Both the position numbers and the translations under genes were made by a program. Below the pieces are notes generated by a model, which was given only the letters and a program-made list of their open reading frames with translations, had not been told where the DNA came from and searched no databases. From positions 1 through 33,942 of the forward strand of contig JAIKXK010000265.1 of NCBI GenBank assembly GCA_024684155.1: a stretch of 33,942 nucleotides of DNA, read 5' to 3'. Below are positions 2,466 to 28,514 of the stretch, in pieces; position 1 is the stretch's first letter, and each line of letters starts with the position of its first letter. This DNA is from Lachnospiraceae bacterium. Lineage in GTDB: Bacteria > Bacillota > Clostridia > Lachnospirales > Lachnospiraceae.

Positions 2466-2476
2466 AGGAGAATAAA

Positions 2477-3592: not shown

Positions 3593-3669
3593 AGATTGGA
3601 TATATTTACGATTTTATGTTTTAATAAAGGGTGGCAGATTTAGAAAAAACAGGAAAAAGAGGACGTAGA

Positions 3670-4599
3670 ATGAAAAAGAAAATTGCCGTATTAATCCCTT
3701 GTTTCAATGAAAGTGTTACCATTGAAAAGGTAGTAAGGGATTATAAGAGGGCGTTGCCTGAAGCAGATATTTATGTATACGACAATAATTCAACAGATCA
3801 TACAGATGAAATCGCAAGAAAGGCTGGAGCCATTGTACGTTATGAAAGACGTCAGGGAAAAGGAAATGTAATACGCAGTATGTTCCAGCAAGTAGATGCT
3901 GATTGTTATTTGATGATTGATGGAGACGACACTTATCCTGCAGAAAATGCAAGAGAAATGTGTGAGTATGTTTTAAATGATGGTGTTGATATGGTAATTG
4001 GCGACCGTTTATCTTCTACATATTTTACAGAGAATAAACGAGCCTTTCATAATTTCGGAAATGTCTTAGTTCGAAAACTGATTAATGGATTATTTCATAG
4101 CAATGTAAAGGACATTATGACAGGCTATCGAGCATTTAGTAAAACTTTTGTAAAGTCCTTCCCTGTTCTTTCAAAGGGATTTGAGATTGAAACAGAAATG
4201 ACTATTCATGCTCTAGATAAGAATTTCAATTTAAAAGAAATACCAGTTACTTATAGAGACAGACCAGAAGGAAGTGAATCGAAGTTAAATACCTTTAGCG
4301 ATGGGTTCAAAGTTCTTAGAACCATTGCTTCCTTGTGCAGAGATTATAAACCACTATTTTTCTTTACAATATTGGCACTGTTATTCTTTGCAGTGGGGAT
4401 GATACTGTTTATCCCGGTATTCTCTGAATATTTAAGTACAGGATTGGTACTTCGATTCCCTACGTTGTTTGTGTCTTGTATGAGTTTTATTATAGCAATG
4501 CTTATGTATGTCTGTGGACTAATCTTAAGTGTAATAGCAAAGAAACATCGACAGTTGTTTGAACTATATTTATATCAGTTAGAAAAAACGGAGGAATAA
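3670..4599 (+). CDS. Polyprenyl-phosphate glycosyltransferase (GT2, GtrB/CsbB/Ppm1-like, two C-terminal TM helices)
   Basis: [38 protein letters not shown] form the GT2 catalytic core. Two C-terminal hydrophobic helices follow ([23 protein letters not shown] and [27 protein letters not shown]). ATG 3670 is preceded by AGAGGA; the ORF-track GTG 3631 start looks like an over-extension. Confidence 0.75.
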
Positions 4600-5483: not shown

Positions 5484-7043
5484 ATGGGAATCATTCGTCG
5501 TGGATTGGCGTTTTGTAAAAAAGTTTATAAGTTTGGACCAGACAATGCCATAAAAGGTAGAAAAATTCGAATTGATTATTTGAAGCATAATTATAATCCT
5601 TTTTCTCATACAAAGATCCAGGAACAATATTTAAAGAGGGCAATTACAAATTGTAAACTAGACTTTACGGTTATCATACTTGGAGATGAGAATGAAAAAA
5701 CCTATGAGTCTGTTAAAGCTCAGCTTATAAAGCCAAAAGACATTCTTTATGGGAAAACCTTAACGAACATAAATGAGATAGCTAAGAAGGAAGAAACAGA
5801 CTATATAGTGATTCTTCCTTCCGGCTGTTTATTAAGTGATGTTTATTTGGCAAATATTGCTATGAGATTACAGGATGAATCAAGGGTGTGCCCAAAACTT
5901 ATTTATACTGATTCTATGGATTTTAAAGGGAATTATTTCTTTAAATCCGATTACGGTCCAGATAGTTTAAGTGCTCAAAACTATATTGGAAACATATTTG
6001 CAGTAAATCGAGAAGCCTTTCTAAAAGAGGGAGGATTCCAAAAAGATGATATAGATTCGGGAATACATGAATTTTTATTATCTTTTACAAAGACTGCTTT
6101 TGAGGATATAGAAAAAGAAGAAGAAATTATGCATATTACTTCTCCACTAGATTATTATCCGACCTTTGAATTAGAAATAGTGCCGTTTTCTTATGAGATT
6201 CAAAATCATCCAAAGATCTCTATTCTTATTCCAAACAAGGATAATAAGGAAGTACTAAAAACATGTATAGATTCTGTTTTGACGAAATCCACATATGATA
6301 ATTATGAAATAATAATTATTGAAAATAATAGTGAACAACAGGAAACTTTTGATTATTATGAATCCTTAACGGATGAAAGGATCAAGGTAATTACCTGTGT
6401 TACGGATTGGAATTATTCTTATATAAACAATTATGGATTAAAGTCTGTAACTGGTGAATATGTTATATTTTTAAATAACGATACAGAGGTGATTTCTTCA
6501 GATTGGATGGAGCAAATGTTGTATTTTGCGCAGAGAAAGGATGTGGGTGCTGTAGGAGCAAAACTTTTATACCCAGATCATACCATTCAACATGGAGGTG
6601 TAACCCTTGGAATTCGAGGAATTGCAGGCCATGCGTTTTTAGGATTTCCTGAAGAATCAAAGGGATATATGAATCGATTGATTTGTGTGCAAAATGTATC
6701 AGCTGTTACTGCAGCCTGCATGATGGTGAAAAAAACCATTCTTGATGAGGTCAAAGGATTTGATGAGGATTTTGCAGTTGCTTTTAATGATGTTGATTTA
6801 TGTATGAGAATTCGTAAATTGGGATATCGTATCGTAATGAATCCGCATGCAAGACTCTTTCATTATGAATCAAAAAGTCGAGGGCATGATGAAAATAATG
6901 CAGAAAAATTAAAGCGGTTTAACCGTGAATGTGATCGATTCGGAAAGCGTTGGTATCCTGAGTTAATGGGAATAGATCCCTATTATAATAGAAATTTAAC
7001 CATGTCTGCGGATGATTTTTCCTATGCAGATATTTATGAATAA
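5484..7043 (+). CDS. Two-module GT2 glycosyltransferase (divergent N-terminal module plus canonical C-terminal GT2)
   Basis: The C-terminal module has ISILIPNKDN..YEIIIIENNS..GEYVIFLNNDTEV..DVGAVGAKLLYPDHTIQHGG..AVTAACMMV..DEDFAVAFNDVDLCMRIR..HYESKSRG. The N-terminal module has FTVIILGDEN..DYIVILPSG..LIYTDSMDF..YGPDSLSAQNYIGNIF, the YxDxD..KPD..NYIG pattern of many O-antigen GT2s. Confidence 0.8.
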   Translation: MGIIRRGLAFCKKVYKFGPDNAIKGRKIRIDYLKHNYNPFSHTKIQEQYLKRAITNCKLDFTVIILGDENEKTYESVKAQLIKPKDILYGKTLTNINEIAKKEETDYIVILPSGCLLSDVYLANIAMRLQDESRVCPKLIYTDSMDFKGNYFFKSDYGPDSLSAQNYIGNIFAVNREAFLKEGGFQKDDIDSGIHEFLLSFTKTAFEDIEKEEEIMHITSPLDYYPTFELEIVPFSYEIQNHPKISILIPNKDNKEVLKTCIDSVLTKSTYDNYEIIIIENNSEQQETFDYYESLTDERIKVITCVTDWNYSYINNYGLKSVTGEYVIFLNNDTEVISSDWMEQMLYFAQRKDVGAVGAKLLYPDHTIQHGGVTLGIRGIAGHAFLGFPEESKGYMNRLICVQNVSAVTAACMMVKKTILDEVKGFDEDFAVAFNDVDLCMRIRKLGYRIVMNPHARLFHYESKSRGHDENNAEKLKRFNRECDRFGKRWYPELMGIDPYYNRNLTMSADDFSYADIYE

Positions 7044-10765: not shown

Positions 10766-11608
10766 ATGAGTAAGAATTTTGCCTGTGTGGAAATAGTAAA
10801 AGAACTGATAGAAAATAGAAAACTAGTTTTCACTCTTGGAAAAAATGATTTTAAAACGAAATATGCGGGACAATACTTAGGTATTGTCTGGGCATTTGTT
10901 CAGCCTGTAATTACAGTATTGGTATATTGGTTTGTATTTGAAAAAGCCTTAAATCAAGGAACTCGAATCACAAAGGCAGGAATTGAAGTGCCTTATGTTT
11001 TATGGCTGATTGCGGGCTTAGTACCTTGGTTTTATTTCTCGGAGTTGATGGCACAGGGAACATCGGCATTAATTGATTATAACTATTTGGTAAAAAAGGT
11101 TGTATTTAATATTAGTACTTTGCCAGTAGTAAAAATGATTTCTAGTCTATTTGTTCATTTTTTCTTTGTGGCATTTACTTTATTTTTGTATTGTTTATAT
11201 GGAAATTATCCAGATTTGTATACATTGCAGTTAATCTATTATTCCGTGGCAATGTCCATATTTATACTTGGATTTATCTATGCGTCAAGTGCAATTGTGG
11301 TTTTCTTTAGAGATTTCTCTCAGGTGATTAGCATTGCTCTTCAAGTAGGCATGTGGGTTACCCCTATTATGTGGAATCTGGATGGAATGGTTACGGCAGG
11401 ACGCATTGGTAAGACTTTAGAAATAATCATAAAATTAAACCCTATGTATTACATTGTAAATGGTTATAGAGAATCTCTAATTTCAAAGGTTTGGTTTTGG
11501 GAGAATCCTACCCTTACCATTTACTATTGGGGGTTGACTATTTTTATGTTTGTATTTGGCACATCTGTATTTAGAAAATTAAAAGTTCATTTTGCAGACG
11601 TGTTGTAA
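10766..11608 (+). CDS. ABC-2 type polysaccharide/teichoic-acid export permease (Wzm/TagG/RgpC-like)
   Basis: 280 aa with 6 hydrophobic segments. The N-terminal ...LGKNDFKTKYAGQYLGIVWAFVQP is the conserved ABC-2 polysaccharide permease signature. It sits directly upstream of the cognate ATPase. Confidence 0.85.
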   Translation: MSKNFACVEIVKELIENRKLVFTLGKNDFKTKYAGQYLGIVWAFVQPVITVLVYWFVFEKALNQGTRITKAGIEVPYVLWLIAGLVPWFYFSELMAQGTSALIDYNYLVKKVVFNISTLPVVKMISSLFVHFFFVAFTLFLYCLYGNYPDLYTLQLIYYSVAMSIFILGFIYASSAIVVFFRDFSQVISIALQVGMWVTPIMWNLDGMVTAGRIGKTLEIIIKLNPMYYIVNGYRESLISKVWFWENPTLTIYYWGLTIFMFVFGTSVFRKLKVHFADVL

Positions 11609-11619
11609 GGAATAGAGTT

Positions 11620-12927
11620 ATGGAAGAATATGCAATTCAAGTAAAAGATGTCAGCAAGATGTATAAATTATTTGATGACAATAAGTCACGAGTAATGGAT
11701 GCTCTTGGACTGACAAAGAAACAACTATATAAAGAACACTATGCTTTGCATCATATGGAGTTTGATGTAAAAAAAGGAGAAACCGTAGGATTAATCGGAA
11801 CCAATGGTGCTGGTAAATCCACCATATTAAAAATCATAACTGGTGTATTACATCCAACCGAGGGGAATGTGGAGATTGATGGAAGAATCTCTGCACTTCT
11901 AGAGTTAGGGGCTGGATTTAATATGGAGTATACCGGCATTGAAAATATTTACCTAAATGGAACAATGATTGGGTTCTCAAAAGAAGAAATAGATGAGAAG
12001 TTAGATGATATTTTAAATTTTGCCGATATTGGAGATTTTGTTTATCAGCCGGTGAAAACCTATTCTTCAGGTATGTTTGTTCGTTTGGCTTTTGCAGTAG
12101 CAATTAATATTGATCCTGAAATTCTGATTGTAGATGAAGCCCTTTCTGTTGGTGATGTTTTCTTCCAGGCAAAATGCTATAAAAAGTTTGAAGAATTTAA
12201 GGCAATGGGAAAGACAATCCTATTTGTAAGTCATGATTTATCCAGCATTACAAGATATTGTGATCGTGTCATTTTATTAAACAAAGGTCGTAAGCTTGCA
12301 GAAGGCACCCCTGGAGAAATGGTAAATCTTTACAAGCGAGTTTTGGCGGGAGCTGCTGATGTTGAGGGGATTGAAGCTGGAGAAAAAGGCGCATTAGAAC
12401 CTAAAACCGGTAGTGTGATAGATAAAGACGGAATGTGGAAAAGTCACTTTACCATTAACCCTAAGGTGGACGAGTATGGTGATGGTAAAGCAGAAATTAT
12501 AGATTTCGGTGTGTTTGATGAAAGAAATCTTGTAACAAATACACTTCAAAAAGGAGAGAAATTTACCATTCGCTCAAGGGTAAAGTTCCATTCGAAAATG
12601 GAAAATCCTATTTTTACTTATACCTTAAAGAATATTCAGGGAGTAGCGATTACTGGTACTAACACCATGTATGAAAAAGTAGATACAGATACTGCAAATG
12701 ATGGTGATGTATATGAAGTTGCTTTTTCTCAGGAAATGAGTCTTCAGGGCGGTGAATACTTATTATCGATTAGTTGTACCAGCTATGAAGGTGGAGAATT
12801 CCATGTTCATAATCGTTTATATGATGTAATTAACTTAACGGTGATTTCGACACAAAACACCGTAGGATTTTATGATATGTTTTCTGAAGTTTCAGTGGAA
12901 CGTAATGGAGAAACCATATTAAACTAG
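11620..12927 (+). CDS. Polysaccharide export ABC ATPase with C-terminal extension (Wzt/TagH/RgpD-like, Wzt_C-type putative glycan-binding domain)
   Basis: Walker A GTNGAGKST, signature YSSGMFVRLAFA, Walker B ILIVDEALSVGD and H-loop VSHD lie within about aa 1-245. Residues about 250-435 (12367-12924) form an extra beta-rich domain (AEIIDFGVFD..FTIRSRVKF..YEVAFSQEMSLQGGEYLLSIS). Confidence 0.85.
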   Translation: MEEYAIQVKDVSKMYKLFDDNKSRVMDALGLTKKQLYKEHYALHHMEFDVKKGETVGLIGTNGAGKSTILKIITGVLHPTEGNVEIDGRISALLELGAGFNMEYTGIENIYLNGTMIGFSKEEIDEKLDDILNFADIGDFVYQPVKTYSSGMFVRLAFAVAINIDPEILIVDEALSVGDVFFQAKCYKKFEEFKAMGKTILFVSHDLSSITRYCDRVILLNKGRKLAEGTPGEMVNLYKRVLAGAADVEGIEAGEKGALEPKTGSVIDKDGMWKSHFTINPKVDEYGDGKAEIIDFGVFDERNLVTNTLQKGEKFTIRSRVKFHSKMENPIFTYTLKNIQGVAITGTNTMYEKVDTDTANDGDVYEVAFSQEMSLQGGEYLLSISCTSYEGGEFHVHNRLYDVINLTVISTQNTVGFYDMFSEVSVERNGETILN

Positions 12928-13796
12928 TGGGGGTCACTTTGAAACAAGAAGAATTAATGCGAATACAAAGCATTGTGGAAGATGGGAAAAACCTTTCTTA
13001 TTCCGAAAAAAAAGAATATTTCCAGACAGAAGCATTCCATAGCGAATCGGTGTCTGTATTGGAACAGTTATCTTATTATAGAGAAAATCTCTACAATTGG
13101 TATCCGTTTCAATCCAGTGATCGTGTTTTAGTTTTAGGATGTGAGTGTGGCTATCTAACGGACTTTCTTTGCCAAAAGGTGAAGAAAGTTGTTTGCGTTG
13201 AACAGGAAAAAATATTTTCAGATATTTGTAATTCGAGATTTCATCAATATGAGAATTTTCAAATGGTAATCGTAGATCATCTCCTTTCCTTTGCAAAAGA
13301 TGAAAAAGAGGAATATGACATTATTATCTGTGATCATGGCATAGAAAAATATGGAGAAGCCTTATTTGAAGTTTTAAAAGAGCTTTGTAAGAGTACTACT
13401 ACCGTATTTGTTTCTGGTTCTAATCGTTTGGGAATGAAATATTGGAATGGGGCGCAAACAAAACAATATCCCAATCTGTTTGCAGGATTGCAACAAGATT
13501 ATGTGAAAGTGGAACATAGATTGTATTCCAGAAAAGAATATATAAAACTATTTGCGCGGGCAGGGTTCGTAGATGATATTTATGAGTATTATCCTTATCC
13601 CGATGAAGTATTCCCAACTGCAATTTATTCAGAAAATCGTCTTCCTAAAGTAGGAGAATTAAATAAACAGTTAAGGGATTTTTCTGAAAAGAAGGTAAGC
13701 TTTTTTAAAGAAAACGAAGCGTTTGATGTTGTAATTGAACAGGAAAACTTCCCAGAGTTTTCCAACGGGTTATTATTTGTATTACAGGTGAAATAA
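12927..13796 (+). CDS. Class I SAM-dependent methyltransferase-like protein (variant motif I)
   Basis: DRVLVLGCECGYLTDFL (motif I with GxExG instead of GxGxG, 13137-13151), VVCVEQE (acidic end of beta-2) and YDIIICDHG (motif II). The start is uncertain: GTG 12927 overlaps the wzt-like stop by 1 nt, and TTG 12939 or ATG 12957 are also possible. Confidence 0.6.
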   Translation: MGVTLKQEELMRIQSIVEDGKNLSYSEKKEYFQTEAFHSESVSVLEQLSYYRENLYNWYPFQSSDRVLVLGCECGYLTDFLCQKVKKVVCVEQEKIFSDICNSRFHQYENFQMVIVDHLLSFAKDEKEEYDIIICDHGIEKYGEALFEVLKELCKSTTTVFVSGSNRLGMKYWNGAQTKQYPNLFAGLQQDYVKVEHRLYSRKEYIKLFARAGFVDDIYEYYPYPDEVFPTAIYSENRLPKVGELNKQLRDFSEKKVSFFKENEAFDVVIEQENFPEFSNGLLFVLQVK

Positions 13797-13797
13797 A

Positions 13798-16728
13798 ATG
13801 GAAAGAATTATTTATTCTAAGTTTTCCAATGACAGAAAAAAAGAATATGCTTTGGTAACAAAAATTCTATCAAAGGATAATGAATTATATGTGTTAAAGG
13901 AAAGTGAGGAAGAAACAGCAAAAAACCATATATTTAAGCTCGTGGAAATCTGTGAGGGGTTAAAAAAACAACTTTTAGATACAGACTTTTATGTTCCTAT
14001 GAGTAAGAAAACAACCAATGGAATCAGAATGGAATATGTAGAAGGCAAGACGCTAGAAGAACATTTTGACGAATTATTAGTAGAGGGAAAAACAAAGGAA
14101 TGTGCAGAAGAAATATATGATTTTTTAAAAGATCTTTTGGAAAAAATACCACACAGTGATTTTAAGATGACAGAAGAATTTTCTGACGTCTTTGGTGAGG
14201 TAACATTGCCAGAGGGGTTATCTAGTTTTGAATGGTCAGATATTGATTTAATTTTCCCTAATATTATTTTGAGTAATAAAGGAAAAGCTATTATTGATTA
14301 TGAATGGACGTTCCATTTTCCTGTTCCGGTGGAGTATATTTGGTTTCGCTCACTTCATAGCTATATTGATTATAGCGAGAAGAGAAAAGAACTTTTAGAT
14401 TATAACTTATATGAGAAACTTGGAATTACAGAAGATATGATAGGTGCATTTTGGAAGATGGAAGATGCTTTCCAAAGTGGTATTTATGAAAAGAGTAGTT
14501 CCTTGGATGAGTTCCATGAAAAGGTGGGGCTTGAGCATTTTTCTTTTCCTTCTGATTATGAGTGTATTCATATGCCAGAGGAAACACCTGGTGATTTCTT
14601 ACGTGTTATAGCAGAATTAGAATCCGAAATTGACAGACAGGTAGAGCGTAAGATGGAAGGGTCTTGCTCTATAAAAAAATTAATTTTATGGGCAGCAAAA
14701 CTTTATGGTAGCGCATCAGAGAAAGAAAAAGAGTTGGCTCATAGAAGTATGAATGCCTCCATGTATTCCTACGATATTTTATTTCCAAATGAGTTGCAAC
14801 ATGATGAATTTATAGTAGTAGATACTGTGAATCAGAAAGCAATGGATGGGCTAAATAGTGGAAAAATTGTTGTAGTGGATGATTGGCTTTATGACAAAGA
14901 AGAAGTGACTCTATGTGATTTACTAGAAGAAAAAACTGAACTGGATTGCAGTTTGTCTTTTTCATATAAGAATGCAAAAGTGTTTTTAGAAGAACGAATG
15001 AAAGATGAACAGAAAAAAACACAAACACTGTTTTCTAATGTGAGAAAAAGAGAAAGAGAAAAAAATGAGAGAAATCTTGCTACGAAAAAAAAGAACGTCA
15101 TATTCTTTTTGGTTTTAGGAGTTTTGACTGTTTTTCGTATTGGTTTGCAACTTCGCTTGCCTATAGGAGCATTTCCTGCTCAATATAGTGACGATGGTAT
15201 TATGATGAGTAATGCCATTAATCTTATGCAGGGAAACTATTTAGGAGAGTATAATTCCTATGTTTTAACAAAGGGGATTTCTTATTCCTTGTTTTTGGTA
15301 CTTACTTATGCAACCATGATTCCTTATGGAATGATGTTATGTATATGGAATATTATTTCTGCAGTAGTGTTTTTGCGCGGAATTTCGCCTCGGATATATT
15401 CAAAAAAATTATTTGCATTTTTATATTTGGTATTACTGTACTTACCAATAGGAATGGATCGATTTATTGGAACAAGAATTTATCGAATTGGAATTATGCC
15501 TTACTTTGCTCTTTTGGTAGCTGGCTGTGCAATTGGTGCTTATCTTAGAAGGGATAAGGGAAGCAAAGCTCTTTTGCCATGGCTGATCTTTGAGGGATTA
15601 TTCCTGGCATTTTTCTATAATATTCGTGAAGATTCTATTTGGATTATGCCATTAGTATTTGTGATTCTAATCATAGAGATAGCTTTAGTTTTCGGTGGAT
15701 TGTGTAAGAAAGAGATGAATCTTTCGAAATTTCTTAAAAGAAGTTTGTTGTATTTACTTCCCATCCTTATATTGTTTGGAACACAGCAGATTTATAAAGG
15801 GGTAAATTATTGTGTATATGGAATTGCAGAAGTAAATGATCGAGCAGGATCTTCCTATGCGGATGTATTAGAGGATTTATATCATATTGATGGCGAAATT
15901 GAGAGAGTAGATGTCTGGGTAACACAGGAAATGCTTCAGAATGCCATTGATGTAAGTCCAACACTTGCATCGATTGAGAAAGAAATCCATGAGAATATGG
16001 CTCAATGGGCAGTGGAAAAGCAGGTACGTGGAGATTTAGTTGGTTGGGCATTGCGAGAAGCAGTAGCAGAAGCTGGCTATTATAAAGATGCTGTTTCAAC
16101 CGAAGCGTTCTATGCTGATGTTCACAAAGAACTAACAGACGCTTTTTCCAACGGCTCTTTAAAGGAAAGGGATGGAATCTATTTATCTTCACAGTTACAG
16201 GCAACAACTCCAAAAGAACTTGTAAAGGTAGTATTAAAATCTCTTCGCACAATGTTTTATGATAGTACCTATTACGAAGTGAAGGCAGAAGCTCAAAAAG
16301 CTCAAGGAAATGTAGATGAAGTCCGTACCTTCGAAAGAGTTACTGGACAACTTGCAGTAATGACAGAAAAGGATTTAAAGGGATATAACAAAGAAGCGAT
16401 TACGGTTGCTAATGCAATTATTTTTGTTTATCGCATTCTGGGATTTATCACTACGCTTTTAAGTGTAGTTGCATATTTATATTTAACAATTTCACTGTTG
16501 AAAAAAAGAAAGTACCAAAATGTTATCTGTATGGATTCATGGTTGATTTTAACAGGTCTTATTCTCAGTGCATTTGTACTTTGTTTTGGAGTAATGATGG
16601 CCATGCGATGGTTTGTGGACAATGTGAATATTTGGTCTGCTTTTTATACAGCAGCTTGTTTTCCATATATTGTATTGTTTAAATGGCTGGCACTTTACTT
16701 AGGTTATAAAGAGTATAAGGAAGGATAA
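13798..16728 (+). CDS. Chimeric protein: N-terminal protein-kinase-like domain, charged/coiled linker, GT-C-like polytopic membrane domain with a ~200-aa extracytoplasmic insert
   Basis: The kinase-like signature comprises YVLKES (Lys34), MEYVEGKTL (hinge-like), DLIFPN (D150-x4-N155, 14245-14262) and IIDYEW (D167, 14296-14298), spaced as in APH/WbdD-type kinases. A K/E/R-rich stretch spans aa 395-432. TM1 starts near aa 433 and is followed by AQYSDDG (15190-15195). About 8 TMs, a soluble segment at about aa 660-860 and 3 more TMs follow. Confidence 0.55.
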   Translation: MERIIYSKFSNDRKKEYALVTKILSKDNELYVLKESEEETAKNHIFKLVEICEGLKKQLLDTDFYVPMSKKTTNGIRMEYVEGKTLEEHFDELLVEGKTKECAEEIYDFLKDLLEKIPHSDFKMTEEFSDVFGEVTLPEGLSSFEWSDIDLIFPNIILSNKGKAIIDYEWTFHFPVPVEYIWFRSLHSYIDYSEKRKELLDYNLYEKLGITEDMIGAFWKMEDAFQSGIYEKSSSLDEFHEKVGLEHFSFPSDYECIHMPEETPGDFLRVIAELESEIDRQVERKMEGSCSIKKLILWAAKLYGSASEKEKELAHRSMNASMYSYDILFPNELQHDEFIVVDTVNQKAMDGLNSGKIVVVDDWLYDKEEVTLCDLLEEKTELDCSLSFSYKNAKVFLEERMKDEQKKTQTLFSNVRKREREKNERNLATKKKNVIFFLVLGVLTVFRIGLQLRLPIGAFPAQYSDDGIMMSNAINLMQGNYLGEYNSYVLTKGISYSLFLVLTYATMIPYGMMLCIWNIISAVVFLRGISPRIYSKKLFAFLYLVLLYLPIGMDRFIGTRIYRIGIMPYFALLVAGCAIGAYLRRDKGSKALLPWLIFEGLFLAFFYNIREDSIWIMPLVFVILIIEIALVFGGLCKKEMNLSKFLKRSLLYLLPILILFGTQQIYKGVNYCVYGIAEVNDRAGSSYADVLEDLYHIDGEIERVDVWVTQEMLQNAIDVSPTLASIEKEIHENMAQWAVEKQVRGDLVGWALREAVAEAGYYKDAVSTEAFYADVHKELTDAFSNGSLKERDGIYLSSQLQATTPKELVKVVLKSLRTMFYDSTYYEVKAEAQKAQGNVDEVRTFERVTGQLAVMTEKDLKGYNKEAITVANAIIFVYRILGFITTLLSVVAYLYLTISLLKKRKYQNVICMDSWLILTGLILSAFVLCFGVMMAMRWFVDNVNIWSAFYTAACFPYIVLFKWLALYLGYKEYKEG

Positions 16729-16729
16729 T

Positions 16730-17749
16730 ATGATTATTAAACTTGGAATTGCCTGTATAGGAATTCTTCTGTCTTCCCTATGTGTGGGACTGAATTTTAT
16801 AAAGGAAAAATTTAATATTGTGGAAGCGGTATTATATGGATTTCTTGGAGTCTTGGGAGGATTAGAAGTCATTTCTCTTCCGTGCATCTATCTTAGACAA
16901 AGCTTTTCTTCGTTTTTTTTGATCGGACTTATTGCAGTAGTTGTAGCATCTGTTATAGGTGTGTTTAGAAAGCGTAAATATTTGCTGACCTGGATAAAGG
17001 AAAGTGTTCGGGGAATTCCTAAAAATATATATTTCTTTATATTTTTGGTTTTCTTATTGGGACAGGTAGGAATATTACAGCTTACTTATCATATGGATGA
17101 AGATGATGCCTTTTATGTTGCTACTAGTACGACTTCGATAGATACGGATACGTTATATATTTATGATGCATTTACAGGAGAAGCTTATGATACCTATCCA
17201 GCAAGATATGTATTATCCCCATTTCCTTTGTATACAGCTTTTGTAGCAAAATGTTTCGGTCTTCGACCTATGGTGGTAGCCCATACAGTTTTTGCAGCTG
17301 TTATGATTATATTGGCGTATGGTGCAATCTGGCTGTTTTCGGAATTATTCTTTGAGGATGGAGAAAAGAAAAGTATTGTCATGGTAATAGCTTCAGGACT
17401 TACAGTATTTTCTTATTATTCTGCTGACATTGCAGGAGCTAGACTTTTGCTTCGCCCATGGCAGGGGAAAACTCTGTTAGCATCCATTGTATTGCCAGTC
17501 ATATTGTATTTTGTTTTAAAATGCGGGAAAAAAGCGAGTATGTCGCTTTTGGAATTTTGTCTGTTATTTCTTATGATGTTAGGCGCATGCTTTGTATCCT
17601 CTATGGGAATTGTTTTATCAGTTGTTATGCTTGGTGTTATTCTTGTAGTTTTATTTTTGCAGACAAAAAATATAAAAATGTTGTTGCAGGGAATTGCTTG
17701 CTGCATTCCAGGAGCAGCACTTTCTTTGATTTATTTAATGATTCGATAG
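16730..17749 (+). CDS. Polytopic membrane protein of unknown function (GT-C-like acidic loop motif)
   Basis: 339 aa with about 9-10 hydrophobic segments. An RKRKYLL loop (inside) is followed by TM4 and then YHMDEDDAFYVATS (DEDD at 17096-17107), predicted outside. AGGAAGGA lies upstream of the ATG. Confidence 0.45.
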   Translation: MIIKLGIACIGILLSSLCVGLNFIKEKFNIVEAVLYGFLGVLGGLEVISLPCIYLRQSFSSFFLIGLIAVVVASVIGVFRKRKYLLTWIKESVRGIPKNIYFFIFLVFLLGQVGILQLTYHMDEDDAFYVATSTTSIDTDTLYIYDAFTGEAYDTYPARYVLSPFPLYTAFVAKCFGLRPMVVAHTVFAAVMIILAYGAIWLFSELFFEDGEKKSIVMVIASGLTVFSYYSADIAGARLLLRPWQGKTLLASIVLPVILYFVLKCGKKASMSLLEFCLLFLMMLGACFVSSMGIVLSVVMLGVILVVLFLQTKNIKMLLQGIACCIPGAALSLIYLMIR

Positions 17750-17758
17750 GATAGAAAA

Positions 17759-19402
17759 ATGATAGAAGTATTTGCGGATGTAATGAAAAACTTTTTAGAG
17801 TTTTTCAATGGAAATTATACTTATATAGTTTTATATGTATTGGCCTTAATTGTAATGGTTATCTGGATGAAGAAAAAAGATGTGACAAAGAATCTTATCT
17901 GGATGAGTATTCTATTATCTATTGTAATTTTCTGCCCAATTACTGCAAAGATAATTATGGTGGGACTTGGAGATAATGTATATTGGAGGATGTTTTGGCT
18001 ATATCCATTCATTCCAGTTATTTCAGTTGCATTGACTTTATTAGTATCAAAGGTAAAGCATAAATTGTTACGTTTTTTTGCAGTGGGAATGTGCGGAGTG
18101 TTTATTCTTTTGGCCGGGAATTCCGTCATCAGTAAGGAATTGTTTGATCGAGCAGAAAACTATGAAAAGACTCCACAGTACGTAATAGAAGTTTGTAACA
18201 TGATTAACGAGGATGCAAAAGAGCAGAATATTACAGATAAAAAATTAGCAACCTGCTCAGCATTTTTATTATATGTGAGACAATATGATGCTACATTAAA
18301 AATGGAAAATAGTAGAGAAAACATTCGTGGGTTTGATGATAGAGAAAATGCATCTATGATTTTTCAATACTTATGTGGTCAAAATGAGAGCATTGATTAT
18401 GATGAGCTGGCAGAATTACTTCGGGAAGAAAACTGTTCCTACATTGTTTTAGATATGGAATATCAGACAGAAATGGGAAGCGAATTAGTAAATCGGGGCT
18501 TTACTCCTGTTGGAAATTATGGACAGTATTATGTTTATAGAGATGGATTCATCAATCTTATGGAACCAATTGAAAACAACGAAGTGGTCAGTCAGTTTGC
18601 AACTTCTGATTCGGGATATTTAATCGGACAATACGCGTCCTTAACAGGGGATCAATCTTCCTTTTATACTATTACAGATACAAAAGGACATTTGATTGTT
18701 ATTGACGGAGGATGGAAAGGGGATAGCGAATATGTTCGTCAGGTAATTGATTACTTTGGCGGAAAAGTGGATGCCTGGATTATTACACATCCTCACTTTG
18801 ACCATGTTCGTGCCTTTAATACCTTAATGGCATCAGAAAACTGCCCAGAAATCACTACGATTTATGCTTCTGAATTTGATTATGATCAATATAAAGAAGA
18901 AGCCAAAAACTGGGATCATTTTGAAGACTTTGAAGATTTTTTAAGCGTTACAAAGGATGCTACGAATTTAGAATATTTACATGCAGGAGACTCTTTGGAA
19001 ATTTGTGGCTTACAAGTGGATGTTTACCATGATTATTCTACCAAAGATGGGGGAGATGCCTGTAATGATGGTTCTTTGGTTTTTGAAGTGACAGCAAACC
19101 AACAAAGTATGCTCTTTTGTGGAGATACAGGAGAGGAACAGTCAGAGACGATTATAGAAAATTATGGAGAACAACTTTCAGCAGATTATCTTCAAATGGG
19201 ACACCACGGAAATGGCGGGTTAAATGAAGAATTCTATAAATTAGTTTCTCCTTCAGTGGCTTTTTTCGATGCACCAGAGTGGCTTATGAATCCAGAGGGA
19301 GAAACTACCTATACCACACCTGAAAATCGTGAGTTGATGGAGTCCCTAGGTGCAAAGATTTATTATTTTAATACAGCACCAAATTATATTATTTTGGATT
19401 AA
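17759..19402 (+). CDS. Membrane-anchored metallo-beta-lactamase-fold hydrolase (ComEC/Pce-type MBL domain), 4 N-terminal TM helices
   Basis: There are 4 TMs in aa 20-123, with KKKDVTK and SKVKHKLLR loops. The MBL motifs are VIDGG, THPHFDH (HxHxDH, 18788-18805), LFCGDTGEE and LQMGHHGNGG, the last being the ComEC-like xHHGS motif. The positive-inside rule places the C-terminal 420 aa outside the membrane. Confidence 0.7.
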   Translation: MIEVFADVMKNFLEFFNGNYTYIVLYVLALIVMVIWMKKKDVTKNLIWMSILLSIVIFCPITAKIIMVGLGDNVYWRMFWLYPFIPVISVALTLLVSKVKHKLLRFFAVGMCGVFILLAGNSVISKELFDRAENYEKTPQYVIEVCNMINEDAKEQNITDKKLATCSAFLLYVRQYDATLKMENSRENIRGFDDRENASMIFQYLCGQNESIDYDELAELLREENCSYIVLDMEYQTEMGSELVNRGFTPVGNYGQYYVYRDGFINLMEPIENNEVVSQFATSDSGYLIGQYASLTGDQSSFYTITDTKGHLIVIDGGWKGDSEYVRQVIDYFGGKVDAWIITHPHFDHVRAFNTLMASENCPEITTIYASEFDYDQYKEEAKNWDHFEDFEDFLSVTKDATNLEYLHAGDSLEICGLQVDVYHDYSTKDGGDACNDGSLVFEVTANQQSMLFCGDTGEEQSETIIENYGEQLSADYLQMGHHGNGGLNEEFYKLVSPSVAFFDAPEWLMNPEGETTYTTPENRELMESLGAKIYYFNTAPNYIILD

Positions 19403-19421: not shown

Positions 19422-20774
19422 ATGCAGGGAAAGAAAAAAATATTTACCATTGTGTTTTTTGCATTTGCAGGAGCACATATTTTAACATTTACCCACGGAG
19501 ATTCTACTAGAATTATGGAATGGGCGAAGCTATTTTTAGATAGCTTGTTTTCTGGAAATATTAGAAATTATGCTGAAGTATTATTGGATAAAGATATCCC
19601 TTCAAACTACAGCATTTTTATTCATATTATAAATTCCATTTGGGTGCTTCCTGTATATGGGATTGATACTTTTATAGATGGAGATATACCTTTATATGTG
19701 TATTCCATGTGGCACCGTGTGCTGTCAGTTCTGCTTACGTTTATTACTATGGGCTATATAGAAAAAATAGGAATACATTTTGGTGTGTCTAGGGAAAAAA
19801 TGGAAGTTGCTACGTTTTTCTATGGCATTTCTACACCACTAATTGTAGGAACTTATGCTATGGGACAAATTGATGCATACCCAACGTTGTTTATGGTAAT
19901 GGGGTTATATTATTTGCTTGAAGAAAAAACGACAGAATCCATTTTATCCTTTTCAGTGATTTTATTTTTAAAACCGTTTGCCTTTATGTATATAGCTCCT
20001 ATGCTGCTGTTATATTTTGCAGATAAATGGAAAAAAGCAATTCCTTATGGAGTATTAGTCGGTATAGTTTGGATTGTGAAAAAACTTGTTACAAAGATAT
20101 TTATCGGATATGGAGATATGGTCTATGTAGAAGAGGTGGAATGGGATCATTTAAGCTTCTTTTTCACTTCAGAGATAAATGTCTTACCACTTTTTGTATT
20201 AACGGTGGGAGTTGTACTTTGTATCTGTTTTGTAAAGGGCATGAAAGGAAAGGTGAAAGAGTGGGATTATATTTACTATCCATATGTAGTATTTTTAGCT
20301 TTTGTAGCATTTAACTTTTGGAATCCCCAGTGGTTTTTGTATGGGATGCCTTTTATCACAATTATATTGTGTAAGATGTGTAATGAAGCAGAAGCAATGG
20401 CTTTTGGTGCAGGCATAAATGGGGCATATTTACTCTTTAACTATTGTGCTTTTAATGGCATGGTGGAAAGTAATATGATTGCAGGTGGACTTATTGCAAA
20501 AACAAGTGGCATTAAGTGGAAAAGTGCAAGCTTACTTGGATTAATTGCAAATAAAATGCCTACAATATCAGGGTACATAACTTCAATTAGTTTAGGAATA
20601 TTAGTGGCTTGTATGATATATGTTTGTTATGCTACTAGGAAAGAGACGTTAGAAGCAGAAGTAGTGGATGCATCTTTGTTTGAAAATAAGAAAAAAGCTT
20701 TTTTGGTTTTATTTGTGATGATATCCATATTTATGATTATATATTCTTATTTTGAGCTATTTAGATGGAATTAA
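19422..20774 (+). CDS. Polytopic membrane protein of unknown function (possible GT-C glycosyltransferase, polymerase or ligase)
   Basis: 450 aa with about 11-12 hydrophobic segments. The N-terminal MQGKKK (inside) is followed by TM1 and then THGDSTRIMEW opening an external loop. TAGGAG lies upstream. I recognise no soluble domain or named motif. Confidence 0.4.
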   Translation: MQGKKKIFTIVFFAFAGAHILTFTHGDSTRIMEWAKLFLDSLFSGNIRNYAEVLLDKDIPSNYSIFIHIINSIWVLPVYGIDTFIDGDIPLYVYSMWHRVLSVLLTFITMGYIEKIGIHFGVSREKMEVATFFYGISTPLIVGTYAMGQIDAYPTLFMVMGLYYLLEEKTTESILSFSVILFLKPFAFMYIAPMLLLYFADKWKKAIPYGVLVGIVWIVKKLVTKIFIGYGDMVYVEEVEWDHLSFFFTSEINVLPLFVLTVGVVLCICFVKGMKGKVKEWDYIYYPYVVFLAFVAFNFWNPQWFLYGMPFITIILCKMCNEAEAMAFGAGINGAYLLFNYCAFNGMVESNMIAGGLIAKTSGIKWKSASLLGLIANKMPTISGYITSISLGILVACMIYVCYATRKETLEAEVVDASLFENKKKAFLVLFVMISIFMIIYSYFELFRWN

Positions 20775-22213: not shown

Positions 22214-22936
22214 TTGATTTTAGAAATGAAAAACGTTTATAAAGATTTTCCTCAGGGAGATTTCACTGTAAACGTATTAAAACATATTAATATTCAAATC
22301 CAAGAAGGCGATTATGTTGCTATTACTGGACCATCCGGTTCTGGAAAAACCACAATGATGAACTTAATCGGTTGCTTGGATTCAGTTACCAAAGGCCAAA
22401 TGATTTTGGATGGAGAGGATGTTAGCTCTTATACAGATAATCAACTTTCTGATTTAAGACTCCATAAAATTGGATTTGTATTTCAGAACTTTGAATTGTT
22501 AGGACAAAAGAGTGCAATTAAAAATGTTTGTGTTCCTTTGGCTTTTGCAGGAGTTCCGAAAAAAGAACAAATGGAAAGAGCAAAGGAAGCTTTAGAGAGG
22601 GTAGGATTAGGAGAGAGATTAGATTTCAAACCAAATCAGTTATCCGGTGGACAAAAACAAAGGGTTGCAATTGCAAGAGCCATGATCAATCGTCCACGTA
22701 TTTTACTTGCAGATGAGCCTACAGGTGCATTAGATTCAGCATCAGGAAAGGCAGTAATGGAGCTCTTTCAGCAGTTAAATGATGAAGGAACTACTATTAT
22801 AATGATTACTCATGACGCAGATGTTGCAGCAAAGGCGAAACGCAGAGCTGTAATGCGAGATGGTATATTAACTTCAGATGATGAGACTTTGGTACCACCT
22901 TATGAGGGAGAGGAGGTGCCTGAAAATGACCAATAA
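22214..22936 (+). CDS. MacB-family ABC transporter ATP-binding protein
   Basis: Walker A GPSGSGKTT, Q-loop, LSGGQKQRVAIARA, ILLADEPTGALD and ITHD. TTG 22214 lies 7 nt after GGAGGAG; ATG 22226 is an alternative start. The N-terminus MILEMKNVYKDF fits the family consensus. Confidence 0.9.
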   Translation: MILEMKNVYKDFPQGDFTVNVLKHINIQIQEGDYVAITGPSGSGKTTMMNLIGCLDSVTKGQMILDGEDVSSYTDNQLSDLRLHKIGFVFQNFELLGQKSAIKNVCVPLAFAGVPKKEQMERAKEALERVGLGERLDFKPNQLSGGQKQRVAIARAMINRPRILLADEPTGALDSASGKAVMELFQQLNDEGTTIIMITHDADVAAKAKRRAVMRDGILTSDDETLVPPYEGEEVPENDQ

Positions 22937-25881: not shown

Positions 25882-27105
25882 ATGACTAAGGAAGAAGCAG
25901 TTCTTTTATTAAAAGAACATAACCAAGAACATGTATTAAAGTATTTTGATACTTTAAGTGAAATAGAACAAAAGGATCTTTTATGTCAAATCAAAGCAGT
26001 TGATTGGGAGATGATTGAAACAGCGAAGTCTGAAGATAACCAGAGCCGTGGGGAGATTACTCCCCTTGGCGCTGTTGAAATCAAAGAAATAGAAGAGCGT
26101 AGAGAAGAGTTTGTAGAAGAAGGATTAAAGGCAATTCGAGAAGGCAAGGTAGGAGCTATCTTACTAGCTGGTGGAATGGGAACACGACTTGGTTTTGATC
26201 AGCCAAAGGGAACTTATTCTATTGGAGAAACCAGAGATTTATCTATTTTTGAATGCTTAATCAATAATCTATTAAAAGTAACAGATATGGCACAGGCCTA
26301 TGTACCACTTTATGTGATGACTAGTGAAAAGAATCATGAAGCTACTGTAAAATTCTTTGAAGAAAAGAATTACTTCGGTTACCCTGAGGAAGATGTACAC
26401 TTCTTTATTCAGGATATGGCTCCTGCAGTGGATTATGACGGAAAGCTTTTACTAGAAGAAAAAGGCAGATTGGCAACCTCTCCAAATGGAAATGGTGGTT
26501 GGTTTACATCTTTACATAAGTCTGGATTATTAGACGATGTTCATAATCGTGGAGTTGAGTGGTTAAATATTTTTGCGGTAGATAATGTATTACAGCAAAT
26601 AGCGGACCCTGCTTTTATTGGTGCTACAATTTTAAGTGGCAAAGAGAGCGGAAGCAAAGTAGTTAGAAAAGCAGAACCTCAAGAACGAGTAGGTGTTTTA
26701 TGTGCTGAAAATGGAAGACCATCTATTGTGGAATACTATGAAATGACAGATGAGATGGCAAATCTTCGTGATGAAGATGGTGAACTTACCTATCGTTTCG
26801 GAGTGATCTTAAACTATTTATTCCGTGTAGATCGTTTGGAAGAAATTATGGCAAATCATATGCATGTACATGTGGTTGAAAAGAAGATTCCTTATATTAA
26901 TGAGGAGGGTGAACTTGTAAAGCCAGAGGAACCAAACGGATATAAGTTTGAAACATTAATCCTTGATATGATTAATATGATGGATTCAAACTTACCTTAT
27001 GAAGTAGTTCGTGAAAAAGAATTTGCACCTGTGAAAAATCTTCATGGAGTAGATTCTGTAGATAGTGCAAGAGAACTTTTAAAAGCAAATGGAGTTGAAC
27101 TTTAA
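25882..27105 (+). CDS. UDPGP-family (eukaryotic-type, UAP1-like) UDP-sugar / UDP-N-acetylhexosamine pyrophosphorylase
   Basis: ILLAGGMGTRLGFDQPKGTY, LYVMTSEKNHEAT, SPNGNGGWF, FAVDNVL and YKFETLILD match the PF01704-type uridylyltransferase signature. The stop overlaps the next start (TAATG at 27103-27107). Confidence 0.8.
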   Translation: MTKEEAVLLLKEHNQEHVLKYFDTLSEIEQKDLLCQIKAVDWEMIETAKSEDNQSRGEITPLGAVEIKEIEERREEFVEEGLKAIREGKVGAILLAGGMGTRLGFDQPKGTYSIGETRDLSIFECLINNLLKVTDMAQAYVPLYVMTSEKNHEATVKFFEEKNYFGYPEEDVHFFIQDMAPAVDYDGKLLLEEKGRLATSPNGNGGWFTSLHKSGLLDDVHNRGVEWLNIFAVDNVLQQIADPAFIGATILSGKESGSKVVRKAEPQERVGVLCAENGRPSIVEYYEMTDEMANLRDEDGELTYRFGVILNYLFRVDRLEEIMANHMHVHVVEKKIPYINEEGELVKPEEPNGYKFETLILDMINMMDSNLPYEVVREKEFAPVKNLHGVDSVDSARELLKANGVEL

Positions 27106-28514
27106 TGTACAGTGAAGGGAAACGAAGCTGGGTCAAACATTTAGATTTTACATTCTTAGATCTAATATGTTTGGAACTGTCCTTAATTTTGGCATATGCA
27201 TGGCGATTCGATGGAAAATGGCTTTTTGATGAAGACATTTATCAAAGATTGGCTGTGATGGTTCTTGTCATTCATATTGTAGTGGTGTTCTTTTTGGAAC
27301 CTTATAAAGGAATTCTACGAAGAAATAAATTCCAGGAATTTAGAGCCACGCTGACTTCAGCCGTAGTATGTTTCGGTGGAGTATTGGTGTATATGTATGC
27401 CATAAAACAATCCGTACTATACTCCCGTCAGTTATTGTTTGTGTTCTTGATTTTTTCCGTAATTATGATTTACACAGAACGTGTAATTTGGAAGCGAGTG
27501 ATTCGTGCCAGAAAACTTCAGGATAAAAACAAGGCCTTAATGACAGTGGTTGCAGAAAGCTCGAATGTTGAGCGATGCTTAAAAGAAATTGCTCAGAATA
27601 AATATACAAACTTTAAAGTTACCGGTGTTGTGGTTGTGGATCAATCCCTTGAAGGCACTTTGATCATGGGAATTCCTGTAATTGCAAATGCAGATAATTT
27701 TTTAGATTATGTACGAACTCATGTTGTAGATGAAGTATTCATTGATGGAAATACGAGAGAAAGTTCAGAGGCACTTGCCTCTGCTCTAGTAGAACTAGGT
27801 ACTACCGTACATATGAGTTTGGTTCATTCAAAGGTATTAGTTCCAAATCGTCAGCTAGACAATTATGGAAATTATGTAGTATTAACAAGCAGTATGCGAA
27901 TTGCTACCAATCGGCAGTTGTTTATAAAACGTACCATGGATATTTTGGGAAGCTTGATTGGATTAATATTAGTAGGAATTGCCTATATAGTGTTTGCACC
28001 TATTATTAAGATTCAATCTCCAGGTCCAGTTTTTTATAAACAGGTTCGTATTGGAAAGAATGGTAGAAGATTTAATTTCTATAAATTCAGATCTATGCAT
28101 GTAGGCGCAGATGCTATGTTGGATAAATTAAAAGAAGAAAACGAGATGAAGGGGAATATGTTTAAAATGGAAAACGATCCTCGAATCATCCCAATTGGGC
28201 ATTTTATGAGAAAGTATTCTATTGATGAGCTTCCTCAGTTTTGGAATGTGCTAAAAGGGGATATGAGTCTTGTTGGAACCCGTCCACCTACGGAAGACGA
28301 ATACGATATGTATGAGTATCATCACAAGGCACGTCTTGGCATTCGTCCTGGTCTTACAGGAATGTGGCAAGTTAGTGGAAGAAGTGATATAACAGACTTT
28401 GAAGAAGTGGTAGAACTTGATACAGAATACATTATGAACTGGACACTAGGTTTGGATATTAAGATTTTGTTTAAAACAGTAGGAGTTGTTTTTAGCGGAA
28501 AGGGTTCAAAGTAA
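27105..28514 (+). CDS. Initiating polyprenyl-phosphate hexose-1-phosphate transferase (large WbaP/WsaP/EpsE-type bacterial sugar transferase)
   Basis: The N-terminal half has 4-5 TMs plus a Rossmann-like region. The C-terminal catalytic domain has KRTMDILGSLIGLILVGIAYIVFAPIIKIQSPGPVFYKQVRIGKNGRRFNFYKFRSM..NDPRI..IDELPQFWNVLKGDMSLVGTRPP..GLTGMWQVSGRSD. Confidence 0.9.
   Translation: MYSEGKRSWVKHLDFTFLDLICLELSLILAYAWRFDGKWLFDEDIYQRLAVMVLVIHIVVVFFLEPYKGILRRNKFQEFRATLTSAVVCFGGVLVYMYAIKQSVLYSRQLLFVFLIFSVIMIYTERVIWKRVIRARKLQDKNKALMTVVAESSNVERCLKEIAQNKYTNFKVTGVVVVDQSLEGTLIMGIPVIANADNFLDYVRTHVVDEVFIDGNTRESSEALASALVELGTTVHMSLVHSKVLVPNRQLDNYGNYVVLTSSMRIATNRQLFIKRTMDILGSLIGLILVGIAYIVFAPIIKIQSPGPVFYKQVRIGKNGRRFNFYKFRSMHVGADAMLDKLKEENEMKGNMFKMENDPRIIPIGHFMRKYSIDELPQFWNVLKGDMSLVGTRPPTEDEYDMYEYHHKARLGIRPGLTGMWQVSGRSDITDFEEVVELDTEYIMNWTLGLDIKILFKTVGVVFSGKGSK

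Follow-up and report, generated by a model that had tools for sequence, protein, structure and literature searches.

In Escherichia coli O9a, the kinase and methyltransferase (MTase) of WbdD cap the non-reducing end of the polysaccharide, and the carbohydrate-binding module (CBM) of Wzt reads the cap (PMC3482155). The WbdD kinase is eukaryotic-protein-kinase-like; C-terminal to the catalytic domains, a long trimeric coiled coil spaces them from the membrane, to which the C-terminus binds peripherally as an anchor (PMC3482155). In Klebsiella pneumoniae O7, ORF6(O7) carries an MTase, a kinase, an Ig-like domain, a coiled coil, and two family 2 glycosyltransferase (GT2) modules in one soluble or peripheral protein of 1,414 aa (Kelly et al., J Biol Chem 2024, PMC11231755). 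For Gram-positive cell-wall polysaccharides made by ATP-binding cassette (ABC) transporter-dependent pathways, chain termination and length control have no experimental basis, according to a 2022 review of the rhamnose-containing polymers (PMC9574508). We analyzed a contig of 33,942 nucleotides from a Lachnospiraceae bacterium (GenBank assembly GCA_024684155.1, contig JAIKXK010000265.1, positions 1 to 33,942; the whole stretch is called the window), in which an open reading frame (ORF) at 13798..16728 (+) encodes a 976-aa protein with a kinase-like module, a connector, and a GT-C-like membrane module. We propose that this protein is a terminator kinase of the ORF6(O7) type fused to, and anchored by, a functional post-export GT-C side-chain transferase, and we put the probability of this reading at about 0.6.

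The window protein and ORF6(O7) have homologous kinase modules with an APH/AmiN-like fold, neither of which has a Pfam family, and the two systems share an MTase family. Both genes lie directly after those for Wzm and a CBM-bearing Wzt in an rml-containing locus. They differ in layout: in the window the MTase is a separate gene with a deviant SAM motif, there is no Ig-like domain and no evident long coiled coil, and the kinase sits on a GT-C module with 10 transmembrane (TM) helices. They also differ in host, since ORF6(O7) acts on a Gram-negative O antigen and the window gene would act on a Firmicute cell-wall polymer. The logic of WbdD, in which kinase and MTase make a cap that Wzt reads and a C-terminal part both spaces the catalytic domains from the membrane and anchors them, is the one that we propose here. 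However, WbdD is a single polypeptide, whereas the window has a separate MTase gene, an aminoglycoside phosphotransferase (APH)/choline kinase (ChoK)-like kinase, and a C-terminus that is an integral 10-TM domain.

GT-C glycosyltransferases such as the GtrC types, GacL, CsdB, and WpsJ are polytopic proteins with an acidic motif after TM1 (PMC9574508; ArnT, 5ezm; AglB, 3waj), as is the membrane module of the window protein. Like the known three- and four-component GT-C systems, the family of this module recurrently pairs with a dolichol-phosphate-mannose synthase (DPMS)/GtrB-type synthase and sits in rhamnan-type loci. Unlike the known enzymes, the family is uncurated by Pfam and NCBIfam and has a helical domain of ~190 aa between TM7 and TM8. 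None of the known GT-C enzymes that we compared carries a cytoplasmic kinase, and the window protein does. A terminator, a Wzt-CBM exporter, and a GT-C enzyme are already documented as separate proteins of one pathway in Citrobacter youngae O1/O2, where the terminator is of the methyl-phosphate type and the post-export GT-C side-chain transferase (GT136) uses undecaprenyl-phosphate-ribofuranose, which a phosphoribosyl pyrophosphate-dependent synthase produces, with a MATE transporter as the flippase (PMC11127046). New here are the covalent joining of the two proteins, a putative terminator anchored by an integral membrane domain, the clade-specific connector, and the recognition of two large uncurated families.

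An N-terminal module related to the ORF6(O7) kinase

Residues 1-233 (13798..14496, +) form a predicted cytoplasmic glycan kinase of the APH/ChoK type. The AlphaFold2 model of residues 1-230 had a predicted local distance difference test (pLDDT) score of 90-98 and a protein-kinase-like (APH/choline-kinase) fold. When this model was compared with the PDB using Foldseek, 92 matches had E <= 1e-3; the best was APH(3')-Ia (E = 1.6e-5), and others were APH(2''), LicA, Mph enzymes, homoserine kinase, and protein kinases, with probability 1.00 for APH, LicA, Mph, and homoserine kinase alike. An earlier interpretation of the letters and translations alone (the sequence-only reading) had noted kinase-like motifs, and each is at the residue it named: YVLK34ES, MEYVEG, D150-L-I-F-P-N155, and IID167YEW, with 12 residues from N155 to D167. 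The beta-3-type lysine K34 (13897..13899, +) is invariant in both kinase alignments that we inspected. D150 and N155 bound a Brenner-type DxxxxN catalytic loop (14245..14262, +), and D167 (14296..14298, +) is the equivalent of the metal-binding aspartate of DFG or IDxE. The motifs go far beyond chance: K34, D150, N155, D167, Y168, E169, W170, and R184 were invariant in an alignment of 30 sequences with 23-61% identity to the window protein; I166 was also invariant. The outcome that would have counted against the sequence-only reading, a non-kinase fold that lacks a nucleotide pocket, did not arise in the model.

We retrieved the orf6(O7) gene from metagenome contigs by means of a published mutagenesis primer sequence. 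The ORF obtained (L067:5755..9999) encodes 1,414 aa, exactly the length of ORF6(O7). A kinase profile matched residues 440-539 of this protein (23 bits, E = 2e-9, single target), pairing D441 with D150, FD458CEW with IID167YEW, and R475 with R184. In ORF6(O7), the D441A mutation abolishes both kinase activity and export (PMC11231755). By BLASTP, ORF6(O7) aligned end to end with Firmicute proteins that join an MTase to the kinase (MT-kinase proteins; P0062, E = 3e-47), and the part of it that starts at the catalytic loop and takes in both GT2 modules aligned with kinase-GT2 proteins (P0010, E = 3e-123). Judged from these alignments, residues 1-233 are an ORF6(O7)-type kinase-fold module homologous to a validated terminator kinase. 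The contig that yielded the gene (RCUT01000002.1, 694 kb, from a "metagenome" collection) looks like Klebsiella genome sequence; the published primer matched it exactly, and it carries a complete K. pneumoniae O7-type rfb region with RmlA, RmlC, Wzm, Wzt, and orf6.

Other searches with the kinase gave less. A search with the profile of the kinase alignment retrieved no named or Gram-negative member. Against PDB sequences, the profile gave sub-significant matches (E about 0.1), all of them to kinases in the correct register and with K34 opposite the VAVK of JAK1, which we treat as a hint only. WbdD, which the sequence-only reading had cited, had to be given up as a homologue of the kinase or MTase: with the kinase profile, one MT-kinase protein, and the window MTase as queries, no WbdD chain was among the PDB matches even at E <= 1-10. 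With no detectable sequence relationship to WbdD, ORF6(O7) is the better reference.

A search of 5.8 billion proteins returned one full-length relative of the window protein, P0002 (966 aa, 58% identity), and 66 more proteins that match residues 1-245 only. Two architectures occur among the 66: an N-terminal methyltransferase followed by the kinase module (about 600-740 aa), and multidomain GT2 or RgpF proteins that begin with the kinase module (about 1,000-1,500 aa). TM helices were predicted in two of 188 kinase-family members, the window protein and P0002, and in none of the other 186. Most members (P0003-P0068 and, at about 585-600, ORF6(O7)) have a conserved Q-[IV]-Y-x-D-x-G-x-G-F-S-E-E segment directly after the kinase, which probably marks where the Ig-like/CBM domain described in ORF6(O7) begins. 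The segment is missing from the window protein and P0002, which have the connector in its place.

The sequence-only reading described what follows the kinase as a charged linker. Its positively charged end, RKREREKNERNLATKKK (aa 416-432), does abut TM1, but residues 234-430 (14497..15087, +) make up a clade-specific connector of ~190 aa that is more than a charged linker. It contains predicted helices and a small alpha/beta part, and residues 390-429 form a long predicted helix that ends in RKREREKNERNLATKKK and, in a model of low pLDDT, runs into TM1. The connector is 40-45% identical between the window protein and P0002, and P0002 was the only protein to cover its 300-430 region among 1.84 billion representative proteins searched with HMMER.

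A membrane module with a GT-C fold

GT-C enzymes are recognized by a DxD, DD, or DE motif shortly past TM1 and by charged residues in later loops (PMC6801728). In Gram-positive side-chain systems, sequence conservation among the GT-C components is absent, and they are recognized by 8-13 TM helices and structural similarity to ArnT or AglB (PMC9574508). Our topology prediction for the window protein combines hydropathy with the model's secondary structure and the positive-inside rule. The N-terminus is predicted to be inside, followed by 10 TM helices with residues 675-864 outside. Hydropathy, model, conservation, and fold matches place TM1-TM7 of the GT-C-like core at residues 431-674 (15088..15819, +). 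A mostly helical soluble domain, predicted to be extracytoplasmic, lies between TM7 and TM8 (aa 675-864; 15820..16389, +), and hydropathy and the model place TM8-TM10 and a cytoplasmic C-terminus at residues 865-976 (16390..16725, +). About eight helices, a soluble insert, and three further helices had been expected; the insert (~190 aa) and the last three helices stand, and the first set has seven.

The model of the membrane module had a pLDDT of 89.5 and a predicted TM-score of 0.88. GT-C enzymes from four CAZy families made up 11 of its 12 top PDB fold matches. By Foldseek these were led by ArnT (E = 1.2e-4, probability 1.00) and Pmt1/Pmt2 (0.99-1.00), followed by AglB, EmbC, PglB, and STT3. 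At the level of fold matches, the region resembles GT-C cores, as the sequence-only reading had supposed, at TM-scores of about 0.3. Searches with sequence were negative throughout. The 976-aa protein, scanned entire and as three sub-regions, had zero matches in Pfam and NCBIfam, and phmmer against PDB sequences gave sub-significant matches only. Pfam and NCBIfam scans of the window protein and 20 members of its GT-C family at E <= 1 returned noise only, and the GT-C profile had only sub-significant matches among PDB sequences. As modeled, residues 431-976 are a GT-C-fold membrane module of an uncurated family.

In an alignment of 20 sequences (20-67% identity), D465, K492, P550, E611, D612, W615, S720, E778, Y825, and Y950 were invariant, and D466, R560, R563, and R610 were nearly so. 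The pair D465-D466 (15190..15195, +), in loop 1 about 12 residues past TM1, occupies the GT-C signature position. It belongs to the AQYSD465D466G sequence to which the sequence-only reading had pointed; D466 is at least 90% conserved. R610-E611-D612 (15625..15633, +), part of a REDSIW motif with R610 at least 90% conserved, falls in predicted extracytoplasmic loop 3. The conserved charged residues of the membrane module map to predicted extracytoplasmic loops 1-3, and the fused module retains all of the family-invariant ones (D465, D466, K492, R560/R563, E611, and D612). The soluble domain contains a conserved SPTLAS motif (S720) and, at 72% identity to P0002, is the best-conserved part between the two proteins.

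The structure of Pmt1/Pmt2 (6p25) also has a soluble domain between TM7 and TM8. These enzymes were among the best fold matches, with a root-mean-square deviation of about 9-10 A over about 300 columns and a loop-1 acidic pair in both. They differ from the window protein in that the insert is a beta-trefoil MIR domain rather than mainly helical, there are 11 TM helices, and proteins are the substrates, with dolichol-phosphate-mannose as donor. The sequences show no similarity.

Two modules in one reading frame

The ORF at 13798..16728 is present as the sequence-only reading described it, within a long array of tightly packed genes that all run in the same direction. Both modules occur together in two of 354 collected proteins, the window protein and P0002. 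A locus from Lachnospiraceae metagenome-assembled genome (MAG) RUI243 at NCBI (L008) is fully syntenic and has an unbroken ORF of 966 aa, whose product differs by four residues from P0002, which comes from a Logan assembly; the two assemblies are independent. A further locus, L001, has been called as two genes with products of 417 aa and 562 aa. We considered whether these are naturally split kinase and GT-C genes and ruled this out, as a run of N (a scaffold gap, 6192-6201) lies at the boundary and the frame reads through. Since the split falls on this run and the frame continues, L001 is a third fused copy. The fusion is genuine: nothing breaks the ORF in the window or in L008. No annotated or characterized family with the same layout turned up in our searches, in line with the suggestion that the architecture is uncharacterized.

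Exporter and methyltransferase genes upstream of the fusion

The fused gene is preceded by genes for Wzm (10766..11608, +; Pfam ABC2_membrane) and Wzt (11620..12927, +), the latter with ABC_tran and a CBM of the Wzt_C family (E = 7e-40) that is 30% identical to the CBM of K. pneumoniae O7 Wzt (E = 1e-18). Next comes a methyltransferase homologue (12927..13796, +), a class I protein of 289 aa whose gene stops 1 nt short of the 976-aa ORF. Its residues 7-286 align with the N-terminal MTase domains of MT-kinase proteins (BLASTP E down to 7e-41). The order Wzm, Wzt(+Wzt_C), MTase, kinase is found in the window, in L004-L008, and in L067; MTase and kinase are fused in L004 and L005, an MTase accompanies a kinase-GT2 protein in L006 and L007, and L067 has the Klebsiella O7 form. 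The idea that the N-terminal module ends chains, first raised from the motifs, is much firmer with a kinase homologous to the validated O7 enzyme and with an MTase homologue and a CBM-bearing Wzt upstream.

The window also contains a polymerase-type GT2, which we call GT2c (5484..7043, +), that resembles the C-terminal rhamnosyltransferase modules of ORF6(O7): residues 997-1410 of ORF6(O7) aligned with residues 137-512 of GT2c (BLASTP, E = 4e-64). Because the MTase, kinase, Wzt CBM, and GT2c all have O7 counterparts, the functions of ORF6 appear to be distributed over separate window genes.

Stand-alone relatives of the membrane module and a lipid-sugar synthase

When residues 430-976 were used as the query, the matches were membrane proteins of about 560-690 aa that stand alone. 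HMMER against the 1.84 billion representatives returned 2,496 clusters at E <= 1e-3, of which 456 had E <= 1e-30, and nearly all were stand-alone; the family thus comprises at least 2,496 clusters (50% identity). With the REDSIW motif as seed pattern, we collected 59 reference-genome loci, 57 of them stand-alone. The family is found mostly in Lachnospiraceae, Oscillospiraceae, and Clostridia; Enterococcus accounts for some members and Gram-negative MAGs for a few.

A gene that we call GT2b (3631..4599, +) encodes a predicted polyprenyl-phosphate-sugar synthase of the DPMS/GtrB/ArnC type (322 aa, two C-terminal TM helices). It is ArnC-like and matches dolichol-phosphate-mannose synthase (PDB 5mlz, E = 2.4e-12) and NCBIfam AglJ (9e-68). 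Homologues of GT2b (54-66% identity) lie within 6 kb of the stand-alone GT-C member in 11 of the 57 loci and are adjacent to it in at least seven. In the most abundant GT-C subfamily, a GT2 that is 60% identical to GT2b (E = 7e-141) begins 91 nt after the GT-C gene, and there are no further glycan genes nearby. Stand-alone members are also found in loci with Wzt, MT-kinase, and GT2c homologues (L023, L026, and L044). From these associations we infer that GT2b may make the lipid-linked donor for the GT-C module.

Several other arrangements occur in this family. In L068 (435-4412), which represents the most abundant stand-alone subfamily (a cluster of >3,600 sequences), an ECF-type (extracytoplasmic function) sigma factor and a 222-aa protein, possibly an anti-sigma factor, are encoded upstream of the GT-C/GT2b pair, an order that suggests envelope-stress regulation of the pair. 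N-terminally extended members carry HAD-like, acyltransferase-like, or extra TM or extracellular segments, and none of those checked carries a kinase. Rare fusions include P0139, with an N-terminal HAD-like domain, and P0181, with an acyltransferase-3-like polytopic N-terminus; P0216 (1,488 aa) has the GT-C core duplicated in tandem, and P0232 has a long C-terminal extension.

A proposed path from chain termination to decoration

The two folds, the homology to the validated kinase, the conservation of catalytic residues, the gene context, and the rarity of the fusion are shown above; what substrates are used, what the cap is, and whether the two halves are functionally coupled we infer as follows. 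The setting would be an ABC-transporter-dependent pathway for a rhamnose-containing cell-wall polysaccharide of a Lachnospiraceae-type Firmicute. The N-terminal module would use ATP to phosphorylate the non-reducing terminal sugar of an undecaprenyl-linked chain, and the upstream MTase homologue may methylate the terminal phosphate. The cap would halt polymerization and be read by the CBM of Wzt before export by Wzm/Wzt. The ~190-aa connector would hang the kinase from the 10-TM GT-C glycosyltransferase, replacing a coiled coil and peripheral anchor. Outside, the GT-C module would most likely move a hexose from a polyprenyl-phosphate-sugar made by GT2b onto the exported polymer, in the manner of GacL, CsdB, and the GtrC-type enzymes.

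Several observations weigh against this proposal. The roles given to the Firmicute kinase clade and to the GT-C family are predictions from sequences and models. TM-scores (template modeling scores) to solved GT-C structures are modest (0.26-0.34), and no sequence profile ties the membrane-module family to a curated GT-C family such as PMT_2, YfhO, or ArnT. Neither a long coiled-coil ruler nor a strong heptad signal is evident in the low-pLDDT connector (aa 234-430). In all three fused loci the partner MTase (window 12927-13796, L001 4097-4951, and L008 3862-4713) has an atypical S-adenosylmethionine (SAM) motif I, LGCECG or LGAECG, with glutamate at the position of G93 in ORF6(O7); it also lacks equivalents of Y28 and Y66 and has a deletion of ~10 aa. 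MTases beside non-fused kinases retain all three residues. The partner MTase is perhaps a pseudo-enzyme or one whose cofactor site is altered, and this degeneracy makes methylation of the cap uncertain. We recognized no GtrA- or Wzx-type flippase in the window, and GT2b has other polytopic candidates for a partner: a DUF2142 protein beside GT2b and Glf, a DUF6077 protein, and the protein encoded at 19422..20774. Finally, the three fused copies found (window, L001, and L008) are all closely related, and the fusion may be a neutral merger of adjoining pathway genes.

Other explanations of the fused protein deserve comparison with a terminator kinase anchored by a working transferase. The membrane module might serve mainly as an integral anchor and spacer that keeps the kinase at a set distance from membrane and exporter, in place of the coiled-coil ruler and amphipathic helix of WbdD and ORF6(O7), its glycosyltransferase activity being irrelevant or lost. 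Known terminators have to associate with the membrane and require a spacer (PMC11231755), and the lack of TM helices in the 186 other kinase-family members, the clade-specific connector, and the rarity of the fusion would all suit such a role. Yet the fused proteins retain D465, D466, K492, E611, D612, W615, S720, and E778, no part is better conserved than the outer soluble domain, and a 10-TM enzyme would be a costly anchor. Because the invariant residues are retained and the outer domain is conserved, we argue for continued selection on enzymatic function and rate the anchor-only role as rather unlikely. The module could also act on a whole glycan block, transferring or polymerizing a second lipid-linked oligo- or polysaccharide onto the exported rhamnan as WpsJ/WpsI do in Lactococcus, with the terminal phosphate made by the kinase perhaps being or marking the attachment site. 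Comparable GT-C enzymes are described in Gram-positive pathways for rhamnose-containing cell-wall polysaccharides (PMC9574508), and the window has a second initiation and assembly set, with Bac_transf (27105..28514), a GT2 (28515..29825), Glf, and several more GT2 enzymes. However, the recurrent partner of the stand-alone members is a DPMS-type monosaccharide-lipid synthase, often in a simple two-gene module that lacks further glycan genes, which points toward single-sugar transfer and leaves block transfer with a small share of our confidence.

It is improbable, in our judgment, that the kinase-like domain is no terminator and instead adds phosphate to something else, whether an internal sugar, a lipid intermediate, or a protein, or acts as a regulatory pseudo-kinase over the GT-C module. 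The SAM site of the partner MTase does look degenerate, a coiled-coil ruler is not recognizable, and the APH/ChoK fold takes many small-molecule substrates; but the catalytic residues are all intact, its homologue in O7 is a validated terminator kinase, it immediately follows Wzt(+CBM) and MTase in all the architectures that we examined, and a CBM on Wzt implies that the chain end is capped (PMC11231755). If adjoining genes had been joined by an assembly or frameshift artefact, the two gene calls in L001 (417 aa and 562 aa) would be accounted for, but the break there is a run of N with the frame continuous, and the ORF is unbroken in the window, L008, and P0002; we give this explanation almost no weight. 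A bolder version of the proposal would make the fusion a working transmembrane coupling device at Wzm/Wzt, in which capping is handed to decoration or the modules gate each other, and the connector and GT-C module act as the length determinant. We consider this version unlikely. If true, it would be a first point of entry into how Gram-positive rhamnan-type pathways end their chains and control their length, and a GT-C family of >2,400 clusters would acquire a function.

With the terminator kinase and post-export transferase as the preferred reading, the fusion would be a Rosetta-stone link, a rare joining of two steps that separate proteins normally perform, which ties termination and decoration to one pathway, and nature would have supplied a construct with which to ask if termination, export, and decoration are physically organized at one membrane site. 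With its GT-C fold, clear catalytic signature, and recurrent DPMS-type partner, a large uncurated membrane family would gain post-export glycosylation as a function that can be tested in thousands of "hypothetical proteins". This locus and the roughly 190 relatives of the kinase show that the terminator kinase/MTase pair, defined in 2024 in K. pneumoniae O7, is widespread in gut Firmicutes, always beside a CBM-bearing Wzt. The surface polysaccharides of Lachnospiraceae are antigens that face host and phage.

Neighboring genes and other observations

Upstream of the fused gene, the window encodes RmlA, RmlC, an epimerase/reductase, a WsaF-type GT, several GT2 enzymes, and Glf as well as Wzm and Wzt. 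The initiating transferase Bac_transf and the GT2 that follows it lie farther downstream, as does an LCP ligase. Directly after the fusion are genes for the DUF6077 polytopic protein (16730..17749, +) and for a metallo-beta-lactamase (MBL)-fold protein that resembles the C-terminal part of ComEC and has four N-terminal TM helices (17759..19402, +). Both are syntenic in all three fused loci; the pair spans 7901-10557 in L001 and 7625-10290 in L008, and a HlyD/ABC/HlyD/FtsX (MacB-like) set follows. As pure speculation, the MBL protein might be an extracytoplasmic phosphodiesterase that processes the cap. A literature search on DUF6077 with GT-C gave no useful result.

The gene at 19422..20774 encodes a 450-aa protein with about nine TM helices and no family match. 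Weak homologues (22-26% identity) lie directly 3' of stand-alone GT-C members in two Oscillospiraceae MAGs (L046 7647-9092 and L047 7549-8982), and the protein is a candidate flippase or other membrane partner. At 1011-4599, the DUF2142 polytopic protein, the UDP-galactopyranose mutase Glf, and GT2b are encoded side by side; this group may serve a further glycosylation outside the cytoplasm, perhaps with galactofuranose, and so compete with the GT-C module of the fused protein for the GT2b product.

Two of the listed gene starts are probably too far upstream. That of Glf (TTG at 2336; gene 2336-3592) overlaps the DUF2142 gene by 130 nt, and the Rossmann motif of the product begins at residue 51-54; the second HlyD gene (22878-24533) overlaps the ABC gene by 58 nt.

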